Counted from the stretch's first letter, positions 11,955-59,211 are shown. The stretch: DNA of 64,000 nucleotides from Candidatus Latescibacterota bacterium (GCA_965242865.1 CBDETK010000013.1:128001-192000), one strand, 5' to 3'. Notes: a model not told the origin generated them from the sequence alone. A program made the numbers and translations.

Positions 11955-12992
11955 ATGAGCCAACGCCTCTCATACACCAGCGCCGGCGTCAATATAGACC
12001 AGACCGATGCCGCCAAGCGCGCCATGGCCGCGAGCATGGAAACCGCCGACCCGCGCGTGCTCAACCGGATTGGCGCGTTTGCCACCCTGCTCGACGCTCG
12101 CTTCCCCGGCTACGCGCACCCGGTGCTGGTCCACAAGAGCGAAGAGCCCGGGTCCAAGCAAAAGTTGGCTTTTGCACACGGCCGCCATCGCGGGGTCTGC
12201 TACGACATGGTCAACCACCTCATCGACGATATCGTCGTCATGGGCGCCGAGCCGATTTCGATCCAAGACGTCATCGTGTGCGGCACGATGGAGGGCGCGA
12301 TCGTCAACGACCTCGTCGACGCCTTGGCCGACGCCTGCCGCCAACAGGGCTGCACCCTGACCGGCGGCGAGACCTCGGTGCAGCCCGGCGTGGTCCCCGA
12401 TGGCCTCTACGTGCTGACCGCCAGCGTCATCGGCGTCGTCGATAAGGACGCCATCATCGACGGCCGCGCCATTGAGGCTGGCGATCAGGTTTTGGCGCTC
12501 GCTTCCAACGGCCTGCATACCAACGGCTATACGCTGATCCGCGCCCTCTTAGACCGGCAACCCGAGCTGCTCGCGGCCGACGTGGCTGGCGAGCCCTTCC
12601 TCGAAGCGGTGCTCAAGCCCCATACCTGCTACTTGCAGGCTGTGCGCGGCCTTTTCACCAGCCCCGGCCTGCACGGCATGGCCCACATCACCGGCGGCGG
12701 CCTCCGCGACAACCTCGGCCGCATCTTGCCGCCAGGCCTCAACGCCCAGCTCGACTTAGCGGCCCTGCAGATCCCACCGATCTTCCGCACCTTGCGCGCC
12801 GCAGGCGACCTAGACGAGGAGGACATGCTGCGCACGTTTAATATGGGCGTGGGTATGGTGCTGGTGGTCGCGCCCGAGGCCGTGGACCAGGTGCTGGCCC
12901 ACGTAGCGGCCCAAGCCTGCCGGGCCTATCCGCTCGGGGAAATCGTCGTTGGCGAGCGCGGAGTTGCGTTGCAGGGGACGCTCGCTTGGTAG
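11955..12992 (+). CDS. purM: Phosphoribosylformylglycinamidine cyclo-ligase
   Basis: 'SYTSAGVNI', 'GGETS..PG', 'SNGLHTNGY', 'HITGGG', 'RTFNMGVG'. Confidence 0.92.
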   Translation: MSQRLSYTSAGVNIDQTDAAKRAMAASMETADPRVLNRIGAFATLLDARFPGYAHPVLVHKSEEPGSKQKLAFAHGRHRGVCYDMVNHLIDDIVVMGAEPISIQDVIVCGTMEGAIVNDLVDALADACRQQGCTLTGGETSVQPGVVPDGLYVLTASVIGVVDKDAIIDGRAIEAGDQVLALASNGLHTNGYTLIRALLDRQPELLAADVAGEPFLEAVLKPHTCYLQAVRGLFTSPGLHGMAHITGGGLRDNLGRILPPGLNAQLDLAALQIPPIFRTLRAAGDLDEEDMLRTFNMGVGMVLVVAPEAVDQVLAHVAAQACRAYPLGEIVVGERGVALQGTLAW

Positions 12993-26743: not shown

Positions 26744-26847
26744 CACTAATCCATCTTGTGCGGATAACTCCGCTCCCACCCCACCGCACCAAACTCTTCA
26801 TCGGACCGCAGCGAGCCGCTTTCGGAGGCGTACACCAAGTTGTAATC
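26744..26847 (-). pseudogene. Divergent copy of the sulfatase 3' tip (copy 1)
   Basis: Aligns ungapped with 33251-33354; about 12 substitutions by my count, includes the stop codon. Confidence 0.9.
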
Positions 26848-26908
26848 AGCGGCGCGACCGATCACAAAGAGTGCGGGCTGCACTACAATGTATGAGAGGA
26901 ATCGCGCA

Positions 26909-27259
26909 ATGACCCACGCCTTGGAATGGCGCTACCACCGCCCTGGCTGACAAAGTTGCAAGCGCGCCCGAGAGTTTCTCGTGCAAAACAACATCGCCGA
27001 CGGCGTCGTGCAGAGCGCGACCAAAGAACCGATCTCCGGCCCGGCTGCCCTCGCCCTGCTGGAAGGCGCGACCGAGCTGTTCGTCGCCCAAGGGCAGCGC
27101 GTCCTCCGTTTTGACCTGACGGCGCAACGGCCGGCGGACGAGGAGTTGCTCCAGCTTCTATTGGGGCGTTCTGGCAAGCTCCGGGCCCCCGCGCTCCGCT
27201 GGGGGACGCGTCTTGTCGTCGGGTACAACCAAGCGCTGCTGCCGCTGGCGTTGGGTTAG
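26909..27259 (+). CDS. ArsC-family (seleno)protein with UxxC motif (TGA 26948-26950 read as Sec)
   Basis: MTHALEWRYHRPG-TGA-QSCKRAREFL...'LLGRSGKLRAPALRWG..LVVGYN'; RBS gagagga; hairpin CGAGA-GTT-TCTCG 3' of the TGA. Confidence 0.8.
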
Positions 27260-27322: not shown

Positions 27323-28471
27323 ATGGAGAAAGATATGTCAAATTCGACCTTGGAAAATGATGTCTCCCTCAAGGAGGAAGAGAGCGATGTTGAAGAAGAG
27401 AAGGAGGACCCACAAGAAAGAATTACAACTCCATTTAACCCTGAGCAGATCAAAATTCGCACCACCCACATCGTCGTTGAACAGCTTATATCGCGCATTA
27501 AGCACGAGGAAATCAACCTAGCACCGGATTTTCAACGACAGGCCGGTATCTGGAACAAAGAGCGCAAGAGCCGCCTCATCGAATCGCTGTTATTACGCAT
27601 TCCTCTCCCGGTATTCTATGTCGCCGCAGACGAGTCTGAAAAGTGGTCGGTCGTTGACGGCATTCAGCGCATGAAGACCATCTATGACTATGTGACGGGT
27701 AAGTTCCCTCTGAGACGACTTGAATATCTAACCAAACTCAACGAATGTATTCACGAAAAACTGCAGAGGCCGTTGCAGCGACGAATCAGTGAGACCCAAC
27801 TCATCGTCAAAGTCATAGAGTCAGGGACCTCACCGGATGTGCTGTTCAACATATTTCGACGTATCAATACAGGTGGCATGACGTTGAACGGACAAGAGAT
27901 ACGCCATGCACTGAATCCTGGTCCTGTTCGGGGCTATTTGAAGGAACTCGCCGAATCCGACGAGTTCAAAAAAGCCACGGACGGTAGAATCAGCCCATTA
28001 CGGATGGTTGATCGGGAGTTCGTACTGCGATTCCTCGCTTTTCATATCATGCCGTGGGAAGAATACTCCTCCAGCGACCTCAATGGCCACCTTGTAAGCA
28101 CAATGAAGAAAATCAACCGCATGAGTGAGCGTGAACGCAACAACTTCGCTACTGATTTCAGGCGAGCAATGTTAGCGGCATTCGATGTATTCGGTGAGCA
28201 TACATTCCGCAAACCACCTAACACACCTGACGACCGCCGACCTCCAATTAATAAGGGTATTTTTGAGGCGTGGAGCGTTCAGTTTGCACGTTGTTCGCCA
28301 GAGCAAATAAGCGCACTTGTCGAGCAGCGGAATGAAGTCCAATGTCGTTTCAAAAAACTGGTGGCAGAAGATAGTGCCCTTCTAAAATCCATCTCCTATT
28401 CGACTGGATCGCCACAGCACGTACAGAAGCGATTCCAAGCAATTAAGCAACTTGTCAAGGAGTTCGTCTGA
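27323..28471 (+). CDS. DUF262 (ParB/GmrS-like) protein; Menshen NsnA-like
   Basis: 'PDFQR..IW', 'LIESLLLRIPLP', 'VVDGIQR', 'IFRRINTGG..L..QEIRHA'; lower GC. Confidence 0.88.
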   Translation: MEKDMSNSTLENDVSLKEEESDVEEEKEDPQERITTPFNPEQIKIRTTHIVVEQLISRIKHEEINLAPDFQRQAGIWNKERKSRLIESLLLRIPLPVFYVAADESEKWSVVDGIQRMKTIYDYVTGKFPLRRLEYLTKLNECIHEKLQRPLQRRISETQLIVKVIESGTSPDVLFNIFRRINTGGMTLNGQEIRHALNPGPVRGYLKELAESDEFKKATDGRISPLRMVDREFVLRFLAFHIMPWEEYSSSDLNGHLVSTMKKINRMSERERNNFATDFRRAMLAAFDVFGEHTFRKPPNTPDDRRPPINKGIFEAWSVQFARCSPEQISALVEQRNEVQCRFKKLVAEDSALLKSISYSTGSPQHVQKRFQAIKQLVKEFV

Positions 28472-29586
28472 TGCTTAGCAATATCAAGCTGATGCACTTC
28501 AAGTGCTTTGAGCAGTTGGATCTAAATTGCAAACAGCTCAATCTCCTCTGCGGTTTGAATGGGATGGGTAAGAGCAGCGTCATCCAAGCGTTGCTTATGC
28601 TCCGGCAATCGTCCGAAACAGGAGAATTGTCCGCCGGTAGGCTGGCCTTGAACGGCGAGCGAGGCGCTGTGGGTACAGGCGAGGATGTACTGTTTGAAGA
28701 CGCCGAGCGCGATGTGTTGGGATTCATGCTTGAGAGCAACAAAATAACAAGACCATGGAAAATGGAATTCGACTGCAGTAGAGAGGCTGATGTTCTATCG
28801 TCCAGCAAGGCTAAGGACGATAGATATAGCGAATGGCGTGATGTACCACCGTTTGGAGGAAAGCTCGTTTACGTGAATGCAGAACGGGTCGGCCCCCGGA
28901 AGTTGTACCCAGTCTCCACCGACGTGTTGACTAGGCGCGGAGATTTCGGTGAAAGCGACGAGTACGCGTGGGGCTATCTAAACCGCCATCAAAACGACCT
29001 TCTACAAGCCGACGACCCGCGTTGCATTGGCAGAGGAGAGCGTCCGCTATTCACCATTGTTGAGCAGTGGATGCAGGACGTGTGCCCCGGTGTTAATCTA
29101 CGACTGGAAGAGATGAGGGAGGTTGACGCGGTCATTGCCGGATTTAGGTTCGACCGAGAGGACGATGTGGCTTCCCACTGGTATCGGGCGACCAATGTCG
29201 GGTTTGGTCTATCGTACGCGCTGCCGGTCATCCTCGCCCTGCTTGCAAAGCCCGGCACACTATGCCTGATCGAAAACCCAGAAGCTCACCTACATCCTCG
29301 AGGCCAGACCAAGCTAGCCGAATTGGCAGCCCGTGCGTCGAAGGCCGGCGTTCAAGTGATTGCTGAGACCCATAGCGATCACTTCATGGATGGCGTACGA
29401 ATCGCGGTCCGCGACGGGCTTATCGAACCAGACGCCGCCACATTCCATTACTTTGAGCGCAAAGGCAATCAGACCGTCGTCTCTTCGCCACAGATAGACT
29501 CGGATGGGCGGTTGTCGTCGTGGCCGATCGGCTTCTTTGACCAGCACGACGAGAATCTGGCAAGGCTACTTGCACCAAAGGAATGA
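28471..29586 (+). CDS. AAA_15/21 ABC-like ATPase with DUF3696; Menshen NsnB-like
   Basis: Walker A 'GLNGMGKS', 'NVGFGLSY.LP', 'IENPEAHLHP', 'ETHSDH', 'WPIGFFDQ'. Confidence 0.9.
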   Translation: MLSNIKLMHFKCFEQLDLNCKQLNLLCGLNGMGKSSVIQALLMLRQSSETGELSAGRLALNGERGAVGTGEDVLFEDAERDVLGFMLESNKITRPWKMEFDCSREADVLSSSKAKDDRYSEWRDVPPFGGKLVYVNAERVGPRKLYPVSTDVLTRRGDFGESDEYAWGYLNRHQNDLLQADDPRCIGRGERPLFTIVEQWMQDVCPGVNLRLEEMREVDAVIAGFRFDREDDVASHWYRATNVGFGLSYALPVILALLAKPGTLCLIENPEAHLHPRGQTKLAELAARASKAGVQVIAETHSDHFMDGVRIAVRDGLIEPDAATFHYFERKGNQTVVSSPQIDSDGRLSSWPIGFFDQHDENLARLLAPKE

Positions 29587-29587
29587 T

Positions 29588-30538
29588 ATGCGCGAGTTCG
29601 TACTGAATGAAGCTAGTATTACAGCCCCCGATCAGCGTACTGCGATAGATTGGCTCGCAGATATCGCCAAAGGGATGTCGTCACTCATTGTTGAGCAAGT
29701 CGTTCAGAACACGTTACGAACGAGCCCCCCTCCACAGGAGATACATTATCGAGACAATAGCTCGCTCTCGGAGGTAATTCTTGCACTGAGACAATGCGGT
29801 TTAGTGGACGAGCATCGGTTCCTCATGCGTAGTAGCGTTAAGTCCCCTCTGATAAACGAACTTGAACAAAGTGTCAAGGATCGGTTCCTCGCGTGTGGAG
29901 GACGGACGTTTCCATCGCCAGTAGGCGATTCCCTCGTCTTATGTGCCATCTCCGATCGGATCGCTGTCAGCTTTCCCTCTGATTCAGTCTGGAACAGCGA
30001 CCTAATTAAGGTTGACTTTTACGAACTGAAGGACGACGAAAGTGGCGAGGTAAGCGAGGAAGAAACGTTTGAAGAAATTGACAATCTCGCCCGCTCCAAT
30101 CACGCGCCTCCAATATGCGAACGCCATCGCCAGAGTCTTCGCGGCCAAATCAAGAGTTATGCAGAATTGTGGAATAACAGAAAACAGGCATTTCCAGATC
30201 TCCTATTCGGGCCGGACGTAGAGGATCATCTTACGGGACTGAATACCGGCCACTTGGAGACTGTCGTTCGCAAGCTAGCGAGTCTCAATGCTGCTGCCGC
30301 CGAGTGGCGCGATGTTGGCGGCGGCGCACCCCAGTGGAAGACCAAAGTGACTGACGAAAACGAGGCGTTGAAGAACAACGCCAGGGAGCGAGAAAAGCGT
30401 CGGTTCAGATCGTGCGATGGTACGCACCCACTGTTCCTGTGGCACACTCGCTTTGGCAGTGCTGGCCGAATCCATCTCCGTTTCGATTCAAGTTCGCGTG
30501 AAATCGAAATTGGCTACATTGGAAAGAAGCTGCTTTAA
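29588..30538 (+). CDS. Putative effector with C-terminal RelE-like nuclease region; Menshen NsnC-like
   Basis: Starts 1 nt after the ATPase stop; C-terminal 'R.FR......F.WHTRFG..GRIHLRF.....IEIGYIGKKL'. Confidence 0.7.
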   Translation: MREFVLNEASITAPDQRTAIDWLADIAKGMSSLIVEQVVQNTLRTSPPPQEIHYRDNSSLSEVILALRQCGLVDEHRFLMRSSVKSPLINELEQSVKDRFLACGGRTFPSPVGDSLVLCAISDRIAVSFPSDSVWNSDLIKVDFYELKDDESGEVSEEETFEEIDNLARSNHAPPICERHRQSLRGQIKSYAELWNNRKQAFPDLLFGPDVEDHLTGLNTGHLETVVRKLASLNAAAAEWRDVGGGAPQWKTKVTDENEALKNNAREREKRRFRSCDGTHPLFLWHTRFGSAGRIHLRFDSSSREIEIGYIGKKLL

Positions 30539-30670: not shown

Positions 30671-30881
30671 CTAATCGATCTTGTGCGGATAACTCCGCTC
30701 CCACCCCGCCGCCCCGAACGCTTTATCGGACCACAGCGAGCCACTCTCCGAAGCATACACCAAGTTGTAATCGTGTGAGGTCTGTACGGAGCGCATGATC
30801 TCGCGCCAGAGCGCGGCGTCCAAGCGCCGGTATTCGGCTGTGTGCGCCGCAGATTCGGCGAGGTTGTGCTGCTCTTGGGGA
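30671..30881 (-). pseudogene. Copy of the sulfatase 3' end (copy 2)
   Basis: Near-identical to 33253-33463 (4 substitutions by my count). Confidence 0.92.
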
Positions 30882-31033
30882 ATTAGTAGGACTGGTCTTT
30901 GTTCTGGACGCGCTTTTCTTTTTCGAAAAGGCCCTGCATGTCTTTTTTCTCAATATTTTCTCAGTATCTTATATTGTAAGGTCATTTTCCCTGCTTCAGA
31001 CGACGAGCTGGACAGAGAACGCAATCAGCAAGA

Positions 31034-31239
31034 GCCCTGCTAAAGGGCGCGACCGAGCTATTCGTCGCCCAAGGACCGCGCGTCCTCCGCTTCGACCTGA
31101 CGGCGCAACGGCCGGCGGACGAGGAGTTGCTCCTGCTTCTATTGGGGCGTTCTGGCAAGATCCGGGCCCCGCGCTCCGCTGGGGGACGCGCCTAGTGGTC
31201 GGGTTCAACCAAGCACTGCCGCCGCTGGCGTTGGGCTGA
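31034..31239 (+). pseudogene. Divergent copy of the 3' half of the ArsC-family gene
   Basis: Aligns with 27053-27259; many third-position changes, a 1-bp deletion, stop TGA instead of TAG. Confidence 0.92.
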
Positions 31240-36169: not shown

Positions 36170-36229
36170 TGAAATCGCAATCCGCGCTTTGATTATAACC
36201 AGCGAGAAGGTGCTGTGGCTGTAACAATT

Positions 36230-36592
36230 ATGCGTACGGTGCGGCCTAGTCCGCAATGGCAAGACAGCTTGATCCGGCTAGCGCCCGGCCAACGGGTCGT
36301 GGTGGATGCCGAAGAAACTTGGTCGCCGGACATGCGCAATCAAATCGCTTGGTGCGGCGCCGATGGCGTGTACAACCTGCCCGCAGAATCGGGCTACCTA
36401 TTACCGGGCGCCAATGTCGGCGCCCTCTTGGGCCGCATTGGCGACGCTGGGCCGGTTTTTGCCCTGGGCAGCCGCTGCGACTTTATCGCCGACCGCGCCG
36501 GCATCCTGCATTTGGCCATGAACGAAAACCCGAGCTTCAACAGCCAAGCCGGCAAAATCGTCGCCCAAATCATCGTCTTTAGCGCACCATGA
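36230..36592 (+). CDS. LecA/PA-IL-like lectin domain protein
   Basis: 'WQDS...L.PGQ.V...A..TWS', 'GALLGRIG..GPVF.LG', 'G.LHLAMNE'. Confidence 0.6.
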   Translation: MRTVRPSPQWQDSLIRLAPGQRVVVDAEETWSPDMRNQIAWCGADGVYNLPAESGYLLPGANVGALLGRIGDAGPVFALGSRCDFIADRAGILHLAMNENPSFNSQAGKIVAQIIVFSAP

Positions 36593-37581
36593 GCCTCGCC
36601 CGCAGTGCGATCGCGCCGCTGGCCGAAGGAGTCTGGCGCGTTGAGGACGCGGCCGGCCGCGATGTCGTGGTCAAGCACCAGCTCTTTGGGCGGCTGACCC
36701 GCGGCCGGGCCTACGATCTGCTCGAAGTGGAGCGCGAAGTGCTCGACATCCTGCGCACAGCCAACTGTCCGGTGCCCGCCTGCCTCGGCGTGGACCCAGA
36801 CGCCCAGTGCATCTTCTTGCAATGGGTGGGCGATCGCCTGCTCGACGACGCCATTCAGGACGGCGACCCAGAGCCGACGATGCAGGCCATTCGCGGGTTG
36901 TGCGCCATTGAGCGCGCCTGCGCCCAACGCGCCGACCGGCTAGTCCCCCGGGTCGTGCCGAGCGCCAGCCGCGCGGCCCTTGCCACCGCTTGGGACGAGG
37001 CCGGAGCGCGGGCCTACGCGGGCATGGAGCAGTTGTGCGGCCGGCTCCAGCGGCCTTTGGACGCCGGACTGCGACCGCTGCTCAAAGCCATGCACGGCTG
37101 GCTAGCGGCGCGGCCGGCCGCGCTGGGCAGCGTTGATTACAACGCGCGCAACGCCGTGGTCGAGCCGGGGGGCACGCGCGTTTACTTCCTCGAATTTGCC
37201 AAAATCGGTTGGGACTGGACGGAACGACGCTTGACGCAGTATGTTACTAGTATGGGCAGCGGCCGGCCGGATGGGCGAATGTGCTCGCTGCTAGACGCGC
37301 CGGCCGCGCGGTTGTACGCCGAGGTATCCGGGCGCAGCGACGGAGCGCGGGCACTCGATTATCACCGAATTTTTTTTCTCCTCAATAGCGCGGCCCTGTT
37401 GGGCGCGGCCCTCGATGGCGAGCCGTACGCGCTGGCCCTGCGCCAGCACTGGAAAAGGCCCCGGGCGCGGCTGCGGCAATGCGCGACCATGCTGGCCGAG
37501 GGCCTGAGCACGGACCCGAGCGCGGCCGAGTTCAGAAGCCGGTTGCAGTTTTGTTTATCACCACGCGGAGGTACTCTATGA
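36589..37581 (+). CDS. Kinase-like (APH/ChoK superfamily) protein with degenerate motifs
   Basis: 'VVVKH', 'E.EVL..L....PVP', 'VDYNARN', 'FLEFAKIGWD'. Confidence 0.55.
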   Translation: MSLARSAIAPLAEGVWRVEDAAGRDVVVKHQLFGRLTRGRAYDLLEVEREVLDILRTANCPVPACLGVDPDAQCIFLQWVGDRLLDDAIQDGDPEPTMQAIRGLCAIERACAQRADRLVPRVVPSASRAALATAWDEAGARAYAGMEQLCGRLQRPLDAGLRPLLKAMHGWLAARPAALGSVDYNARNAVVEPGGTRVYFLEFAKIGWDWTERRLTQYVTSMGSGRPDGRMCSLLDAPAARLYAEVSGRSDGARALDYHRIFFLLNSAALLGAALDGEPYALALRQHWKRPRARLRQCATMLAEGLSTDPSAAEFRSRLQFCLSPRGGTL

Positions 37582-37844
37582 GCGAGTGGAACACGCTCGA
37601 TTTCAAGCCCCGGGCCCGGGGCATCATCATCGGCGATATTCCTTGGCTGGCGCGGATAGCCGACAAGGCGCGGGCGCACCAGCAACAGCGCATCGGCGAC
37701 TATGTATTTCCCTGACCGGCCGACCAGCGCTTCCTGGAGGAAGTGGAGTTGACAGCCGGAGCATTTGAGGAGATGGTGGCCGCGTCCGACGACGACGATG
37801 CCCTGATCCAAAAGATGAAAGCGCACTTGGCCAGAAAGCCCTAG
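37578..37844 (+). CDS. DUF5069-like putative selenoprotein (TGA 37713-37715 read as Sec), 88 aa
   Basis: 'PWLARIADKARA....IGDYVFP-TGA-PADQRFLE' matches the family YxxPCPxD motif; RBS ggagg; frame closes 1 nt before the next ATG; hairpin CTTCC-TGGA-GGAAG. Confidence 0.78.
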
Positions 37845-37845
37845 C

Positions 37846-38733
37846 ATGAGCACCCCAACGCGCCCCGCGCGCACACCCAAGCGGAGAGTTCGGGAGCTGG
37901 AGGTGGTCGTCGTCCAAGCGCGCCGCGACACCCCAGACACCACCACGCTCTTTATGTCGGCTGGCGACGAGCCGCCCGCCTACGAGGCCGGCCACTTCTG
38001 CACCATTGATCCGCATCAGTTCGGCGAGTTGGAGCACTTCACCGCCTATTTAGAAGATCAAAAGGGGCAGCGGGAAAAGCCGCGGGCCTATTCCATGGCT
38101 TCTGCACCGCACGAGCAGCATCTGGCCATCACGATCAAAGAGGAACGCTACGAGAGCGGCCAGACCCCGTACCCCCCGCTGCTGTCGCCGCTTTTGACGT
38201 ACTACGTCCAAGCGGGTCGGCGGCTGGTCATCAGCGGTTTTACCGGGGCATACACCTTTCCCCCTGATGTCTGCGACCGCACCGGTCACATTCTCCACGT
38301 GTGTGCTGGCAGCGGCATTGTGCCCAACCGGAGCTTGATCAAGGAAAGCCTGCACCGCGGCGACCCCCTCCGGCACACCTTGCTGTTTAGCAACAAGACG
38401 CGCCGCGACATCATTTACTACGAAGAGTTTGAAGCGCTGCGGGCGCAGTATCCCAGCCAGCTCGACGTGATTCACTGCATCACCCGCGAAGATCCCGTCG
38501 GCATCCGCGGGGCCCGCAACGAGCGCATCTCCGGGGACCTCTTGCGCGAAGTCGCGCCCGACCCTTCGGCGGTGCTGGCCTATAGCTGCGGCCCGGGCAT
38601 CACGCCCTACGAGCGTCGGGCGGCCCGGGCCCAAGGCGAGGAGCCGGAGCCGCGCTTCGTCGAAAACATGGTCGCCCTGTTGCGCGCCCACGGGTTGGAC
38701 AAAGGGCAGATCCGGCAGGAAAGCTGGGGCTGA
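37846..38733 (+). CDS. FAD/NAD(P)-binding oxidoreductase (ferredoxin-NADP reductase family)
   Basis: 'RAYSMAS', 'CAGSGIVP', 'LLFSNKT', 'YSCGP', 'ESWG'. Confidence 0.85.
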   Translation: MSTPTRPARTPKRRVRELEVVVVQARRDTPDTTTLFMSAGDEPPAYEAGHFCTIDPHQFGELEHFTAYLEDQKGQREKPRAYSMASAPHEQHLAITIKEERYESGQTPYPPLLSPLLTYYVQAGRRLVISGFTGAYTFPPDVCDRTGHILHVCAGSGIVPNRSLIKESLHRGDPLRHTLLFSNKTRRDIIYYEEFEALRAQYPSQLDVIHCITREDPVGIRGARNERISGDLLREVAPDPSAVLAYSCGPGITPYERRAARAQGEEPEPRFVENMVALLRAHGLDKGQIRQESWG

Positions 38734-51909: not shown

Positions 51910-51999
51910 CTCCACGGCAGGCGAATCTTCGCCGGGCGATCAGCACGGCCTATTACGCTCTATTCCATTGCTTGGCCAGATGTTGCGCCGACATGCTAG
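51902..51999 (+). pseudogene. Internally deleted copy of the HEPN gene
   Basis: Matches 55926-56023, then jumps to the gene end via the 12-bp repeat ccgacgcgctag (56012 and 56338). Confidence 0.85.
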
Positions 52000-52655
52000 C
52001 GGCTCAGTGCCCAGACCGCGATGTTGGTGCCCATTTTGAGGGCGTCGAGGCGCTTGCTCTCCGGGTCGTTGTGGACGCCGGGGTCCTCCCAGCCGTCGCC
52101 TAAATCCGCTTCGTACGTGTACAGTACGGCGAGGCGGTCGCCGGCGAACAGCGCGAGGGCTTGCGGTCGTTTGCCGTCGTGCTCGTGGACTTTGGGCAGG
52201 CCGGCTGGCAACTCAAAGTGACAGCGGAACAGGGGATGTTCGGGCGGCAGCTCGATCCACTCGGCGTTGGGAAAGACTGGGCGCATGGCGCGGCGGAAGC
52301 TCTCGTCCATGCCGTAGTTGTCGTCCGCGTGGAGAAAACCGCCGCTCTCCAAGTAGTGCCTAAGCCGCGCCACTTCCTCAGCGGAAAACGCGACATTGCC
52401 GTGCCCGGTCATGTAGATGTACGGATAGGAAAACAATTCCTCGTCCATGATTTGCACCCGTGCCTCGGCTTCGGCCGCGTCGATTTGGGTATGCTCCCGC
52501 AAAAAGCGGAGCAGGTTGGGCAGGGAAGAGAGATCGCTGTACCAGTCGCCGCCGCCGCCGTACTGCAGTCGCGCAATGGTAAATAGGGGCTGGGCCGGGC
52601 TGTCCACCGCAAGGAGCGCGACGGCAACCGCAGCGTAGAGGGCGCGGACGCGCAT
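51996..52655 (-). CDS. DUF4159 domain protein (duplicate copy)
   Basis: 'GGGDWY', 'YPYIYMTGHG', 'GGFLHADDNYG', 'DLGDGWED'; near-identical to 56346-57005. Confidence 0.88.
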   Translation of the reverse strand: MRVRALYAAVAVALLAVDSPAQPLFTIARLQYGGGGDWYSDLSSLPNLLRFLREHTQIDAAEAEARVQIMDEELFSYPYIYMTGHGNVAFSAEEVARLRHYLESGGFLHADDNYGMDESFRRAMRPVFPNAEWIELPPEHPLFRCHFELPAGLPKVHEHDGKRPQALALFAGDRLAVLYTYEADLGDGWEDPGVHNDPESKRLDALKMGTNIAVWALSR

Positions 52656-52656
52656 G

Positions 52657-53874
52657 TCAGGGATTGTTGATCACGGCGAATTTGCCGCGCACGGGATCGC
52701 CGATTTCTGCCTGCGCGACAAAGTAGTAAATGCCCGACCCCGCGAGAAAGCCGGCCGCGCTCTGGCCGTTCCAAATGACCGCGCCCTCGCCGGCCGCCGT
52801 GAAAATGCGGACGCCGGCCCCAAGCGGCAGATCGGCAAAGGTCAGGGATGCGCCGCGGCCGCCGATGTGAAAGGGGTTGGGGTACGCGTACGCCCGCGGT
52901 CCAACGGCTGTCCCCGAGCCGCCGAGTTGCAGGCGGCTCATGCCGGCGAGCGTACCAATCCACAACGCGCCGTTTTCCCGGTCGAAGTGGAGCGAGTTGA
53001 CGCGATTGTTGACGAGGCCGTCGCTGGTGTCGAGCGCGAACTCAACTTGGCCCTCGGTGTTGATGCGGGCCAAGCCGCCTTCGGTGCCGACCCACATTCG
53101 CCCCCAGTCGTCTTCGGCCAGCGCCGTGGTCGCGGTGGATGGCAGGCCGTTGTCGGTGCTGTACACCCGCCAACTCGCGACAGCAAAATCCGCATTGGCG
53201 CGCGAATAGGTGCCGCGCACGGCATTGAGGCCGTTGTTCGTGGCGACCCACACCCGCCCCGACCGATCGACGTGAATGTCGCTGATGGTATCGCTCGTCA
53301 GGTCGGGGTATGCGGCCGTGTCAAAGGCCAAGCCGAGCTCGTCGCCGATTGCAAAAGGAGTGCCGCCATCGTCGAAGCTGTTGAGCGCGGCCCGTTGGGG
53401 CGGCCACCCATCCATGACGACGAGTCCATTGCGGACGTTGGCGATCCACAGCAAGCCGTTGGCGTCGCGGTCAATGTCGCTGATGGCGACAAAGGCATCG
53501 CCGTCAATGCCGGCGAGCGCCGAGTTGGTGGCGTTGAGGTTGTGCCACTGGCCAGCGGCGTCGCGCACGTCAATGCCCCAACCCCAACTTCCGACCCACA
53601 GCAAGCCCTCGGCGTCGGTCTCTACGGCCGAGACTTTTTCGGACGACAGGTTGGTCCGGCTGGTGTGGGTGGTCCAGCCTTGGCCGTCGAACTCGTACAG
53701 GCCAAAAGCGGGCAGATTGTCCTTGGGCACGGAGGCGACCCATAGATGACCGTCGGCGGTCTGAGCCATGTCGAAGAAGAAATTGCCTACAGGATCGCGG
53801 GGGGGCCGCGGCGGGTCGGCACCGATGACGCGCAGGCCGCTCGCGCTGGCTACCCACAGCGGGCCACCGGTATC
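52657..53874 (-). pseudogene. 3' half of the two-component-regulator propeller (PorZ-like) gene with two internal in-frame deletions
   Basis: Copy of 57007-58359 missing 33 bp and 102 bp; no signal peptide. Confidence 0.88.
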
Positions 53875-53875
53875 A

Positions 53876-54415
53876 TTCGTGGCCAACGGGCACGTGTATC
53901 CCCAAATCGAACGCCCGGGCAGCGGCGCGACCTACGCGCAAGCCAACCACTTGTTCGCCAATGACGCCGGTCACTTCCGCCTCGTTGAGCTGGCCCCGAG
54001 CGAGAAGCGGGCGGTCAGTCGCGGCGCGGTGGCCGGGGACTTTGACGACGATGGCCGCTTAGACCTGTTCGTCACTAACCTCAACGACCGCCCCTCCCTG
54101 CTGCACAACCAGACGACCGCTGACCACCATTGGCTCGGCCTGCGCCTTGTGGGCGCGGGAAAAAACCGCGAGGCCGTTGGCGCGAAGGCCGTATTGTGGA
54201 GTGGCGGTCAAAAGCAGCGGCGGGACGTGCTCTGCGGCGAGAGCTTCTTGGGCAGCGGCGACCGGCGCGTGCATTTTGGCTTGGGCGCAACGGGCCGAGC
54301 GGATTCGCTGCACATCTATTGGCCGAGCGGGGTGCTGCAACGGCTAATTGGCTTGCCGATTGATGGGTATGTGAGGGTTGAGGAGGGAGTTGATGGCGGC
54401 GTTGGAGTCTGGTAG
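53876..54415 (+). pseudogene. C-terminal fragment of a CRTAC1/ASPIC-UnbV gene
   Basis: 'FVANGHVYPQI', 'SRGAVAGDFDDDGRLD', 'NREAVGA', 'HFGLG', 'WPSG'; starts abruptly at the junction. Confidence 0.82.
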
Positions 54416-55889: not shown

Positions 55890-56349
55890 CCTCATTTCTG
55901 CCGCGCAAGACTTAGTCGGCGACGGCAAAGGAGCTCCACGGCAGGCGAATCTTCGCCGGGCGATCAGCACGGCCTATTACGCTCTATTCCATTGCTTGGC
56001 CGGATGTTGCGCCGACGCGCTAGTAGGAACTGCCAGAGCCAATCGAAGCGAACCTGCATGGCGTCAAGCCTATCGCGCCCTAGAACACCGCGACGCTGCT
56101 AAGCGGTGCGAACAGAACCAAATTCAGCGGTTCCCGCCAGAAATTCAGGAATTTGCCGGGGCGTTCGTGGACATGCAGCGAAAACGCCATCGAGCGGATT
56201 ACGCATCTGAAGGGCATTGGCTGAAGTCCGAAGTAGCGGACGATATAGCCCAAGCGGCCGCGGCAATCGCGCTACTTGAACATGCGCCGCTAAAGGATCG
56301 TCGCGCATTCGCTGTCTATGTCTTGCTTAGGCTCAGACCGACGCGCTAG
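55876..56349 (+). CDS. HEPN domain protein
   Basis: 'RRAISTAYYALFH', 'RALEH', 'KRHRADY'. Confidence 0.82.
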   Translation: MTPHDLISAAQDLVGDGKGAPRQANLRRAISTAYYALFHCLAGCCADALVGTARANRSEPAWRQAYRALEHRDAAKRCEQNQIQRFPPEIQEFAGAFVDMQRKRHRADYASEGHWLKSEVADDIAQAAAAIALLEHAPLKDRRAFAVYVLLRLRPTR

Positions 56350-57005
56350 CGGCTCAGTGCCCAGACCGCGATGTTGGCGCCCATTTTGAGGGCGTCGAGG
56401 CGCTTGCTCTCCGGGTCGTTGTGGACGCCGGGGTCCTCCCAGCCGTCGCCTAGATCCGCTTCGTACGTGTACAGCACGGCGAGGCGGTCGCCGGCGAACA
56501 GCGCGAGGGCTTGCGGTCGTTTGCCGTCGTGCTCGTGGACTTTGGGCAGGCCGGCTGGCAACTCAAAGTGACAGCGGAACAGGGGATGTTCGGGCGGCAG
56601 CTCGATCCACTCGGCGTTGGGAAAGACTGGGCGCATGGCGCGGCGGAAGCTCTCGTCCATGCCGTAGTTGTCGTCCGCGTGGAGAAAACCGCCGCTCTCC
56701 AAGTAGTGCCTAAGCCGCGCCACTTCCTCGGCGGAAAAAGCGACATTGCCGTGCCCCGTCATGTAGATGTACGGATAGGAAAACAACTCCTCGTCCATGA
56801 TTTGCACCCGTGCCTCGGCTTCGGCCGCGTCGATTTGGGTATGCTCCCGCAAGAAGCGGAGCAGGTTGGGCAGGGAAGAGGGGTCGCTGTACCAGTCGCC
56901 GCCGCCGCCGTACTGCAGCCGCGCAATGGTAAATAGGGGCTGGGCCGGGCTGTCCACCGCAAGGAGCGCGACGGCAACCGCAGCGCAGAGGGTGCGGACG
57001 CGCAT
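56346..57005 (-). CDS. DUF4159 domain protein
   Basis: 'GGGDWYSDP', 'MTGHG', 'DDNYG', 'GDGWED'. Confidence 0.9.
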   Translation of the reverse strand: MRVRTLCAAVAVALLAVDSPAQPLFTIARLQYGGGGDWYSDPSSLPNLLRFLREHTQIDAAEAEARVQIMDEELFSYPYIYMTGHGNVAFSAEEVARLRHYLESGGFLHADDNYGMDESFRRAMRPVFPNAEWIELPPEHPLFRCHFELPAGLPKVHEHDGKRPQALALFAGDRLAVLYTYEADLGDGWEDPGVHNDPESKRLDALKMGANIAVWALSR

Positions 57006-57006
57006 G

Positions 57007-59211
57007 TCAGGGGTTGTTGATCACGGCGAATTTGCCGCGCACGGGATCGCCGATTTCTGCCTGCGCGACAAAGTAGTAAATGCCCGACCCCGCGAGAAAG
57101 CCGGTCGCGCTCTGCCCGTTCCAAATGACCGCGCCCTCGCCGGCCGCGCCCTCGAGGACGCGGACGAGTTCGCCGGCCGCCGTGAAAATGCGAACGCCGG
57201 CCCCAAGCGGCAGGTCGGCAAAGGTTAGGGATGCGCCACGGACGCCGATGTGAAAGGGGTTGGGGTACGCGTACGCCCGCGGTCCAACGGCCGTCCCCGA
57301 GCCGCCGAGTTGCAGGCGGCTCATGCCGGCGAGCGTACCAATCCACAACGCGCCGTTTTCCCGGTCGAAGTGGAGCGAGTTGACGCGATTGTTGACGAGG
57401 CCGTCGCTGGTGTCGAGCGCGAACTCAACTTGGCCCTCGGTGTTGATGCGGGCCAAGCCGCCTTCGGTGCCGACCCACATTCGCCCCCAGTCGTCTTCGG
57501 CCAGCGCCGTGGTCGCGGTGGATGGCAGGCCGTTGTCGGTGCTGTACACCCGCCAACTTGCGACAGCAAAATCCGCATTGGCGCGCGAGTAGGTGCCGCG
57601 CACGGCATTGAGGCCGTTGTTCGTGGCGACCCACACCCGCCCCGACCGATCGACGTGAATGTCGCTGATGGTATCGCTCGTCAGGTCGGGGTATGCGGCC
57701 GTGTCAAAGGCCAAGCCGAGCTCGTCGCCGATTGCAAAAGGAGTGCCGCCATCGTCGAAGAGGAAGAAACCGTCGAGCGCCGTCCCGACCCACTTTAGGC
57801 CGTCGGGTCCCACGGCGATTTTGGTCATGTCGCGGCCTAGGGACATGCCAAAGTCCAACTGGCTGTTGAGCGCGGCCCGTTGGGGCGGCCACCCATCCAT
57901 GACGACGAGTCCATTGCGGACGTTGGCGATCCACAGCAAGCCGTTGGCGTCGCGGTCAATGTCGCTGATGGCGACAAAGGCATCGCCGTCAATGCCGGCG
58001 AGCGCCGAGTTGGTGGCGTTGAGGTTGTGCCACTGGCCAGCGGCGTCGCGCACGTCAATGCCCCAACCCCAACTTCCGACCCACAGCAAGCCCTCGGCGT
58101 CGGTCTCTACGGCCGAGACTTTTTCGGACGACAGGTTGGTCCGGCTGGTGTGGGTGGTCCAGCCTTGGCCGTCGAACTCGTACAGGCCAAAAGCGGGCAG
58201 ATTGTCCTTGGGCACGGAGGCGACCCATAGATGACCGTCGGCGGTCTGAGCCATGTCGAAGAAGAAATTGCCTACAGGATCGCGGGGGGGCCGCGGCGGG
58301 TCGGCACCGATGACGCGCAGGCCGCTCGCGCTGGCTACCCACAGCGGGCCACCGGTATCCGATAGGTCGGCGGCGCTGCTGATACCGCTCGCGCTGAGCG
58401 GTTGCCAGCGGTTGCCCTGCCGCAGGGTTAGGAGGCCATCAGCCGTCGCCCTGACGATGCGCCCCTCAAAGAGGCCGAGGGTGACGATGCGGGTCGTGGG
58501 GTACGCGAGCACGGGCGGGTCGAGCGCGGGATGGACGCGCCAGATGCCGTCCACGGCTGAGACGAAGAGCGTGTCTTGATGGACTAGCATGTCGCGCACC
58601 TCGCCTCTTATGGGCGCGGTCTGCCAACTGCTGGGGTCTTGGAGGTTGGGTTGGTCCAAATCCGCCGACGCTAGGCCGTGGACGGTCCCGGCCCATAGCT
58701 GACCGGCAAATAGTGCTAGGCTGGTCACCTCGGTGTCTTTGGCCAAACTTCCCAAGCGGCGATAGGTTTCCTTGACCTCCTCCTTGCTGATGATAAACGC
58801 ACTGACGCCGCGCTCGCTGCCGACGTAGAGGACGTCCCCATGCGGCTTGAGGGCGTTGATGCGGAGGTTTTGGAAGTCGAGAAACGGCGGGTCAAAGCGG
58901 TCTTGCGCCGGCCGATAGCGGCTCAAGCCCTCGGAGTGCGTACCAAACCACAAGTGGCCGTTGGCATCTGCGGCGAGGCTCAAGATGAGGTTGCCCGGCA
59001 GGCCGTCGCGGCGGGTGAAGCGCGTATAGGCTTGGGTCTGCTGGTCGTAGCGCAGGACGCCGCCGTGCGTGCCGGCCCAGACGGCGTTTTGGTGGACGAG
59101 GACCCGATTGATTTGGCGCATACTGGTATAGGCTTCCCATTGGGTGCCGGCGAGCTGGGCGCGGACGGGTAGAGCCAAAAGCAGCAGCGAAGCAAGGTGG
59201 AGCCAGAGCAT
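57007..59211 (-). CDS. Two-component regulator propeller domain protein (PorZ-like) with C-terminal sorting domain
   Basis: Signal peptide, repeated 'D..G.LW.GT..GL' blades, 'AYPNPF...WNG.......SGIY'. Confidence 0.85.
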   Translation of the reverse strand: MLWLHLASLLLLALPVRAQLAGTQWEAYTSMRQINRVLVHQNAVWAGTHGGVLRYDQQTQAYTRFTRRDGLPGNLILSLAADANGHLWFGTHSEGLSRYRPAQDRFDPPFLDFQNLRINALKPHGDVLYVGSERGVSAFIISKEEVKETYRRLGSLAKDTEVTSLALFAGQLWAGTVHGLASADLDQPNLQDPSSWQTAPIRGEVRDMLVHQDTLFVSAVDGIWRVHPALDPPVLAYPTTRIVTLGLFEGRIVRATADGLLTLRQGNRWQPLSASGISSAADLSDTGGPLWVASASGLRVIGADPPRPPRDPVGNFFFDMAQTADGHLWVASVPKDNLPAFGLYEFDGQGWTTHTSRTNLSSEKVSAVETDAEGLLWVGSWGWGIDVRDAAGQWHNLNATNSALAGIDGDAFVAISDIDRDANGLLWIANVRNGLVVMDGWPPQRAALNSQLDFGMSLGRDMTKIAVGPDGLKWVGTALDGFFLFDDGGTPFAIGDELGLAFDTAAYPDLTSDTISDIHVDRSGRVWVATNNGLNAVRGTYSRANADFAVASWRVYSTDNGLPSTATTALAEDDWGRMWVGTEGGLARINTEGQVEFALDTSDGLVNNRVNSLHFDRENGALWIGTLAGMSRLQLGGSGTAVGPRAYAYPNPFHIGVRGASLTFADLPLGAGVRIFTAAGELVRVLEGAAGEGAVIWNGQSATGFLAGSGIYYFVAQAEIGDPVRGKFAVINNP

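Follow-up and report, generated by a model that had tools for sequence, protein, structure and literature searches.

The type example of a bacterial selenoprotein gene with an in-frame bacterial selenocysteine insertion sequence (bSECIS) is fdhF of Escherichia coli. In the bSECIS model, as given in a 2026 inventory of selenoprotein families (PMC13188914), the element is a hairpin with an apical loop of 3-9 nt and a stem of 4-16 bp, carrying a G in the first two loop positions, lying 16-37 nt from the UGA and having a minimum free energy of -7.5 kcal/mol or lower. Here, we analyzed a stretch of 64,000 nucleotides from a Candidatus Latescibacterota bacterium (GCA_965242865.1 CBDETK010000013.1:128001-192000; hereafter the window), in which an initial annotation had proposed a hidden DUF5069-like selenoprotein gene. 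Our analysis indicates that positions 37578-37844 very probably form a single gene for an 88-residue DUF5069 protein, in which the UGA at codon 46 would be decoded as selenocysteine (Sec). Like known bacterial bSECIS genes, it carries an in-frame UGA at the position of the homologues' Cys and a small coding-region hairpin just 3' of it, with a G at loop position 2 followed by another G. It differs from such genes in general by its protein family, and by a 12-nt hairpin core that is nearly invariant even though the proteins are only approximately 50-55% identical.

The gene layout described in the initial annotation was recovered by direct reading of the sequence. A Shine-Dalgarno-like GGAGG lies 6 nt before the ATG (37578-37580), which overlaps, as ATGA, the TGA stop (37579-37581) of the upstream open reading frame (ORF). 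The in-frame TGA is followed by 42 sense codons (37716-37841) and a TAG (37842-37844), and the ATG of the next gene begins at 37846, 1 nt past this TAG. The proposed hairpin was also found as described, with arms CGCTTCC (37728-37734) and GGAAGTG (37739-37745) around the loop TGGA (37735-37738), the loop starting 19 nt past the TGA. When the TGA was read through, the 88-aa product matched PF16798 (DUF5069) with 49.4 bits (cut-off of 27, E-value of 6.5e-13) over residues 11-86, thus spanning codon 46. This match extends over profile positions 4-79 of 133 only, so the window protein is a short DUF5069 form.

When approximately 5.8 billion protein clusters were searched, 58 full-length homologues of approximately 89 residues were obtained, at 49-72% identity to the window protein. 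The TGA had been said to fall on the Cys of a conserved motif, and this Cys (C46) was indeed invariant in all 58 homologues, where it sits in the motif Y42-x-x-x-C46-P-x-D49. The residues directly past the TGA, P-A-D-x-x-F-L, were among the best conserved. In the wider family, the Cys column held a Cys in 66 of 75 more distant members (the window's own protein being counted as C). Across 75 diverse members, P11 and K30 were invariant, and R12, R26, D29, D49, and D73 were nearly so.

To follow codon 46 across related loci, one genome per species (GTDB representatives) was scanned, and the best 80 of 176 confirmed relatives were fetched with up to approximately 20 kb each. Of the two search patterns, one demanded a Cys codon and the other was neutral, and the ranking is biased towards relatives of the Sec-form query. 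The initial annotation had set beforehand that a TGA private to this genome, with Cys in all close homologues, would speak against a selenoprotein; this was not the case. The aligned codon was TGA in 65 loci, TGC in 10, and TGT in 5, which is no unbiased frequency because of these search patterns and this ranking. Codon 46 thus alternated only with the two Cys codons and never with Trp or Gly codons. The 65 TGA forms were labelled Latescibacterota (28), Poribacteria (21), Gemmatimonadota (10), Planctomycetota (1), and Pseudomonadota (1), with four carrying no label; these phylum labels were taken from record titles, and those of metagenome-assembled genomes (MAGs) may be imprecise. The closest locus (L001), from a Latescibacterota MAG, encodes a DUF5069 protein 94% identical to that of the window, with neighbouring genes at 80-96%, and identity drops to approximately 49% among the TGA loci.

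In every TGA locus, the frame past the TGA was open for 35-46 codons up to a normal stop (one, L055, being cut by a contig end). The entropy of codon positions 1, 2, and 3 was 0.73, 0.64, and 1.30 downstream of the TGA outside the hairpin, and 0.46, 0.34, and 1.32 upstream. Third codon positions were therefore the most variable both before and past the TGA, and the part past the TGA clearly appears to be translated. A quick tree needed at least three changes between Sec and Cys, of which the well-supported branches forced only one; it was built on 88 columns with L055 left out, and was poorly resolved.

The hairpin named in the initial annotation proved to be the conserved element, with conservation confined to the TGA forms. 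The fold of the window sequence alone stands out only moderately (63 nt, -22.5 kcal/mol, z of -2.24, with 7 of 200 shuffles as good), and decisive support therefore comes from the comparison of loci and not from the window alone. The 12-mer TTCCTGGAGGAA, which comprises the inner four stem pairs and the loop, has a single occurrence in the window, where 0.15 would be expected if one mismatch is tolerated, and was nearly invariant in 64 distinct TGA forms. In these forms, the third positions of the four hairpin codons had entropies of 0.12, 0, 0.12, and 0, compared with 1.00, 0.91, 1.16, and 1.16 in the 15 Cys forms; third positions elsewhere in the TGA forms ranged from 0.5 to 1.9. With its UGGA loop, 7-bp stem, spacing of 19 nt, and free energy of -8.0 kcal/mol, the window hairpin falls within all four limits of the bSECIS model (PMC13188914).

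Among 60 distinct Sec-form sequences, the stem was paired in 95.0% of cells, compared with 78.6 ± 1.3% after shuffling (a level that 0 of 500 shuffles reached) and with at most 70.5% when one arm was slid. Double-sided stem changes numbered 54, with 16.6 expected, and covariation was 0.370 vs. 0.114, again reached by 0 of 500 shuffles. The three outer stem pairs change with compensation, even at an amino-acid cost: pair 18-31 was C-G in 38 sequences and G-C in 22, and pair 17-32 was A-U (18), G-U (16), U-A (16), or G-C (7). The 15 Cys forms had no excess of pairing (74.3% vs. 70.0%, with 31 of 500 shuffles reaching it) and no excess of covariation. Lower stems around the core were predicted in many Latescibacterota-type loci and not in Poribacteria-type ones, and are thus not a conserved part of the element. 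Two Cys forms kept more of the hairpin, namely L029 (TGT), with the full 7-bp stem and a TACA loop, and L056 (TGC), with the whole TTCCTGGAGGAA core. These two are possible relics of a former SECIS, which would fit decay after a switch from Sec to Cys.

The window also contains a second selenoprotein gene, at 26909-27259 (+) with its TGA at 26948-26950. It encodes a 116-aa ArsC-like protein with the motif R-P-G-U-Q-S-C (UxxC), which matched NF041106, 'ArsC family (seleno)protein', with 112.3 bits (cut-off of 85). In the related loci, 17 of 17 full-length copies of this gene had the TGA together with a conserved 8-bp hairpin, with a GUU loop, approximately 23 nt downstream. The presence of an NF041106-family selenoprotein gene in the same window indicates that the organism decodes Sec. 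Moreover, of the 41 ORFs with Pfam support in the window, 16 end in TGA, among them the gene directly before the DUF5069 gene, and the genetic code is thus not changed. There were 239 read-through candidates window-wide, and our scan covered 29 of the 31 TGA candidates that lie in stretches without a Pfam-supported gene, the remaining two being the DUF5069 gene's own frames. The ArsC-like gene was the only real case among these 29. PRA-PH and HATPase_c_4 matches among the read-through candidates were rejected because they do not span the TGA. Sec-containing hydrogenases have been reported from Poribacteria MAGs (PMC13582414).

Several observations weigh against Sec decoding of codon 46 through this hairpin. 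The stem exchanges mostly split the Latescibacterota-type from the Poribacteria-type clade, and the independent covariation events are therefore few. Neither the number of pairs with a double change (3 vs. 3.0) nor that of extra pair types (7 vs. 7.9) was above shuffles. The outermost pair, 16-33, was unpaired in 17 of 60 sequences, and the 18-nt core alone reached -7.5 kcal/mol in only 37 of 65. At the protein level, not all members of the wider family have the Cys, as another residue stands in its column in 9 of the 75. Lastly, selA, selB, selD, and tRNA-Sec were not seen in the 64-kb window or in the approximately 20 kb per related locus, a silence that does not amount to absence. With ARAGORN, the window gave no tRNA and the 80 loci only a tRNA-Met and a tRNA-Ala, both in L060, with no tRNA-Sec; Rfam gave no match in the window at gathering thresholds. 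The only AIR-synthase-like gene (11955-12989) was rejected as a SelD candidate, since it scored 273.7 bits against PurM and 26.5 bits against SelD, for which the cut-off is 125.

If the TGA were a true stop, the locus would be a pseudogene, a split gene with a 45-residue peptide, or the product of a sequencing or assembly error. We find this highly improbable, given that 65 independent assemblies with several phylum labels share the same TGA, followed by an open, coding-like frame and a proper stop, when a decaying pseudogene would gather further stops and frameshifts. Gene callers do end 11 of 145 representative matches exactly at residue 45, as a true stop would have it, and the failure to see Sec machinery in the DNA covered counts on the same side. 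Against a stop, there is no restart codon or ribosome-binding site right past the TGA, yet P-A-D-x-x-F-L is among the best conserved stretches. A frameshift in the DUF5069 gene of a close relative also speaks for a stop. This relative, P0059, is a public metagenome protein of 76 aa that is 88-93% identical to the window protein over its first 31-33 residues and then continues in another frame. Its residues 44-57 are identical to what the window encodes in the +2 frame over the TGA and the hairpin, so its contig has the same TGA context together with an indel, which may be either an assembly error or a broken copy.

The clearly translated downstream frame would also be explained if a selenium-free standard amino acid (Trp, Gly, or Cys) were inserted at the UGA, owing to a changed code, to a suppressor tRNA, or to near-cognate read-through stimulated by the hairpin. 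A hairpin past a stop codon can stimulate read-through in general, and the Sec machinery of some bacteria can place Cys at UGA when selenium is short; both facts count for this explanation. We nevertheless regard it as very unlikely. The use of TGA as a regular stop in the window leaves no room for a code change, and the exchange of codon 46 with Cys codons only, across the 80 loci, does not suit Trp or Gly. Moreover, the loop, spacing, and size of the hairpin fit the bSECIS model, and both the window and 17 related loci carry a member of a curated selenoprotein family that has a TGA and a hairpin of its own. It is also conceivable, and in our opinion extremely improbable, that the hairpin is not a SECIS but serves the protein through its F-L-E-E residues or has another RNA role, such as an attenuator or the site of another factor. 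Its position inside a conserved coding sequence means that the protein explains some of the conservation, and the Cys forms also pair to some extent in the same columns, as given above. A protein need does not explain why synonymous positions are frozen only where the codon is TGA, nor the compensatory stem exchanges that change amino acids (R..V, M..H, and K..L codons giving C-G or G-C). The Cys forms vary both residues and codons, and the two fossil-like ones would fit decay following a switch from Sec to Cys.

Decoding of UGA as Sec thus remains the explanation that we prefer, and the established bacterial pathway suggests how it would proceed. As the ribosome nears codon 46, the mRNA 12-32 nt past the UGA would fold into the 7-bp hairpin with its UGGA apical loop. 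SelB, with GTP and Sec-tRNA(Sec), would bind this loop and bring Sec to the A site in place of release factor 2, after which translation would continue for 42 codons to the TAG. With selenium or SelB limiting, a truncated peptide of 45 residues would be expected. The coordinates of the gene, of its elements, and of its neighbours are listed in Table 1.

Table 1. Positions of the predicted DUF5069 selenoprotein gene, its putative decoding elements, and the adjoining genes in the 64,000-nucleotide window.
Feature	Coordinates	Strand	Basis
Shine-Dalgarno-like GGAGG	37567..37571	+	Direct sequence reading
Predicted DUF5069 selenoprotein gene, 88 codons including Sec46, plus TAG stop	37578..37844	+	Translation with TGA=U; PF16798 across TGA; same architecture in 65/80 loci
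In-frame TGA, predicted selenocysteine codon, residue 46	37713..37715	+	Aligned with invariant Cys; shared by TGA loci
Predicted SECIS core hairpin, 7-bp stem CGCUUCC/GGAAGUG, apical loop UGGA 37735-37738	37728..37745	+	Pairing, covariation, bSECIS criteria
Predicted extended stem-loop of minimum-energy fold, lower stems around core	37716..37759	+	Fold prediction
Gene for 330-aa kinase-like (APH-like) protein, upstream	36589..37581	+	Protein-atlas features
125-aa ORF of no assigned family, first gene of conserved trio	36215..36592	+	Conserved in 48/80 loci
FNR-like NAD(P)H-flavin reductase gene, downstream	37846..38733	+	Pfam NAD_binding_1

As a structural relative, the predicted protein has only PDB 3omd, a Leptospirillum rubarum protein that is itself uncharacterised. 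An AlphaFold model of the window protein (predicted local distance difference test of 83.4) consists of a short beta hairpin and four helices, with residue 46 directly before helix 47-55. By sequence, 3omd matched the window protein with a profile E-value of 2.1e-13. With Foldseek, the model superimposed on 3omd_A with a query-normalised TM score of 0.76 and a root-mean-square deviation of 1.8 A over 73 columns at 32% identity; the Foldseek E-value was only 4.2e-3, and no other PDB chain was below an E-value of 5. The window protein shares with the Cys-type DUF5069 proteins, including 3omd, the motifs P-R, R-x-x-D-K-x-R-A, and Y-x-[YF]-P-C-P-x-D. It differs from them in having a predicted Sec in place of the Cys, and in missing the C-terminal part present in 3omd and most members. 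In some DUF5069 proteins (among P0064, P0074, P0076, P0082, P0106, and others), the domain occurs as two or three tandem copies. Elsewhere in the family it is fused to Cupin_2 (twice), DUF2249, a methyltransferase, DLH (dienelactone-hydrolase), and CO_deh_flav_C; these fusions were set aside as a guide to function because they are too mixed.

Within the same lineage, the nearest selenoprotein for comparison is the NF041106 ArsC-type protein, which is likewise small, with a single Sec, a TGA, and a conserved downstream hairpin. The ArsC-type protein has a UxxC motif and belongs to a curated family, whereas the DUF5069 protein has F-P-U-P-A-D, no second Cys near the Sec, and no NCBIfam model. 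The surroundings of its predicted Sec, Y-V-F-P-U-P-A-D, contain no nearby Cys, and the protein is thus not a CxxU or UxxC redox centre. With no second Cys 2-3 residues from the Sec and a predicted fold of a short beta hairpin and four helices, it also stands outside the thioredoxin-fold and CxxU/UxxC class. In the inventory (PMC13188914), the DUF1858, DUF523, DUF3179, and KCU-star/DUF466 selenoproteins, among others, offer a parallel, as they too are Sec/Cys families defined by bioinformatics for which no reaction is known. Many families of that inventory have CxxU, UxxC, or CU motifs, whereas DUF5069 has an isolated U (PMC13188914).

As to function, we suggest with low confidence that the DUF5069 protein has a redox or nucleophilic centre made of one Cys or one Sec beside a basic binding patch. 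It would be a small, mainly helical protein in which a single reactive chalcogen precedes helix 47-55, near P11, R12, R26, D29, K30, and D49. In the lineage of the window, this protein would be co-produced with an APH-like kinase, to which it would be translationally coupled, and in most cases also with an FNR-like reductase.

In this lineage, the DUF5069 gene is the third of a conserved trio, after the 125-aa ORF and the kinase-like gene. Neither upstream protein had a Pfam or NCBIfam match. The product of the 125-aa ORF was 63-96% identical across the loci that have it, and gave a weak PA-IL lectin lead only. The 330-aa protein was grouped with APH by protein-atlas features (0.98-0.99, in 23 of 30 matches), and a relative of it lies within 6 kb on the upstream side of the DUF5069 codon in 50 of the 80 loci. 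Of 48 full-length cases, 36 had a 4-nt overlap between the kinase-like stop and the DUF5069 start, and 4 had an 11-nt overlap. Lys, Glu, Asp, and Asn residues were invariant across 35 aligned relatives of the kinase-like protein and, judging from a by-eye correspondence, they may be the catalytic residues of a kinase fold. Downstream, an FNR-like reductase gene adjoins the DUF5069 gene in 38 of 80 loci. A complex prediction for the APH-like and DUF5069 pair of a Cys-form locus (L038), each protein with its alignment, gave a score of 0.00, to be compared with a mark of 0.32, which is evidence neither way.

The 125-aa, 330-aa, and FNR-like genes have no relatives in Poribacteria-type loci, even at an E-value of 0.01. 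The trio is thus lineage-specific and cannot define the function of DUF5069. In the Poribacteria-type loci, the gene is preceded by UPF0182 (18 loci) or by a glutaredoxin-fused pyridine-nucleotide disulfide oxidoreductase (2 loci) and followed by pheA (22 loci); these neighbours were not adopted as a functional linkage. A more far-reaching proposal, which we consider unlikely, is that DUF5069 provides the Se/S nucleophile of a new two-protein enzyme system with the APH-like kinase and the adjacent FNR-like reductase, rather than acting as a generic thiol-type antioxidant. Its substrate would be a phosphorylated small molecule or an envelope-glycan precursor, with the basic patch formed by P-R and R-x-x-D-K-R binding phosphate beside the Sec. 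Under the same proposal, movement of the Sec form from one lineage to another would account for the near-invariant SECIS core that Latescibacterota-type and Poribacteria-type genes share. Such an enzyme system, if true, would have a chemistry without counterpart among known selenoproteins.

Elsewhere in the window, the distance between the ArsC-like gene and the DUF5069 gene is 10.8 kb, compared with 4.6-9 kb in related loci. The ArsC-like gene region has a partial second copy (26746-27255 and 30671-31235), visible as direct repeats of 88-93% identity (26746-26847/30671-30772, 27053-27189/31034-31170, and 27184-27255/31164-31235). These repeats bracket a block of approximately 3.3 kb with a GmrSD_N-domain gene (27323-28471), an AAA_15/DUF3696 ATPase gene (28471-29586), and a familyless ORF (29504-30538). 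The block looks like a defence island inserted beside the ArsC-like gene. On the minus strand, 51996-53886 and 56346-59211 hold two like pairs, each with a DUF4159 gene (51996-52655 and 56346-57005) and then a Reg_prop beta-propeller gene.

The initial annotation did not recall DUF5069 as a classic selenoprotein family and, in agreement with this, the family is absent from the 119 families and subfamilies in Table 1 of the 2026 inventory (PMC13188914). The read-through protein had no NCBIfam match (release 20.0, E-value up to 0.001). 'DUF5069' and 'PF16798' were not named in the full-text literature searched, nor were they found in the available part of the BSepDB supplement. DUF5069 would accordingly represent a new selenoprotein family using a known mechanism, judging from sequence comparisons, and papers or supplements beyond those seen may still list it. 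The shortening of the gene by gene callers is mirrored in the protein records, in which no full-length protein is more than 72% identical to that of the window, though 24 loci are 88-94% identical.

Sec-form DUF5069 genes thus appear to be systematically truncated by gene callers. With this family, the bacterial selenoproteome would gain a member that is apparently widespread in poorly known phyla, in records labelled Latescibacterota, Poribacteria, and Gemmatimonadota. The uniform hairpin could help to find more selenoprotein genes and to study SelB specificity in these lineages. A Cys that is exchanged for Sec is, as a rule, a catalytic residue with a redox or nucleophilic role. DUF5069 has a solved structure, and a conserved Cys worth exchanging for Sec would provide the first functional clue to this family.

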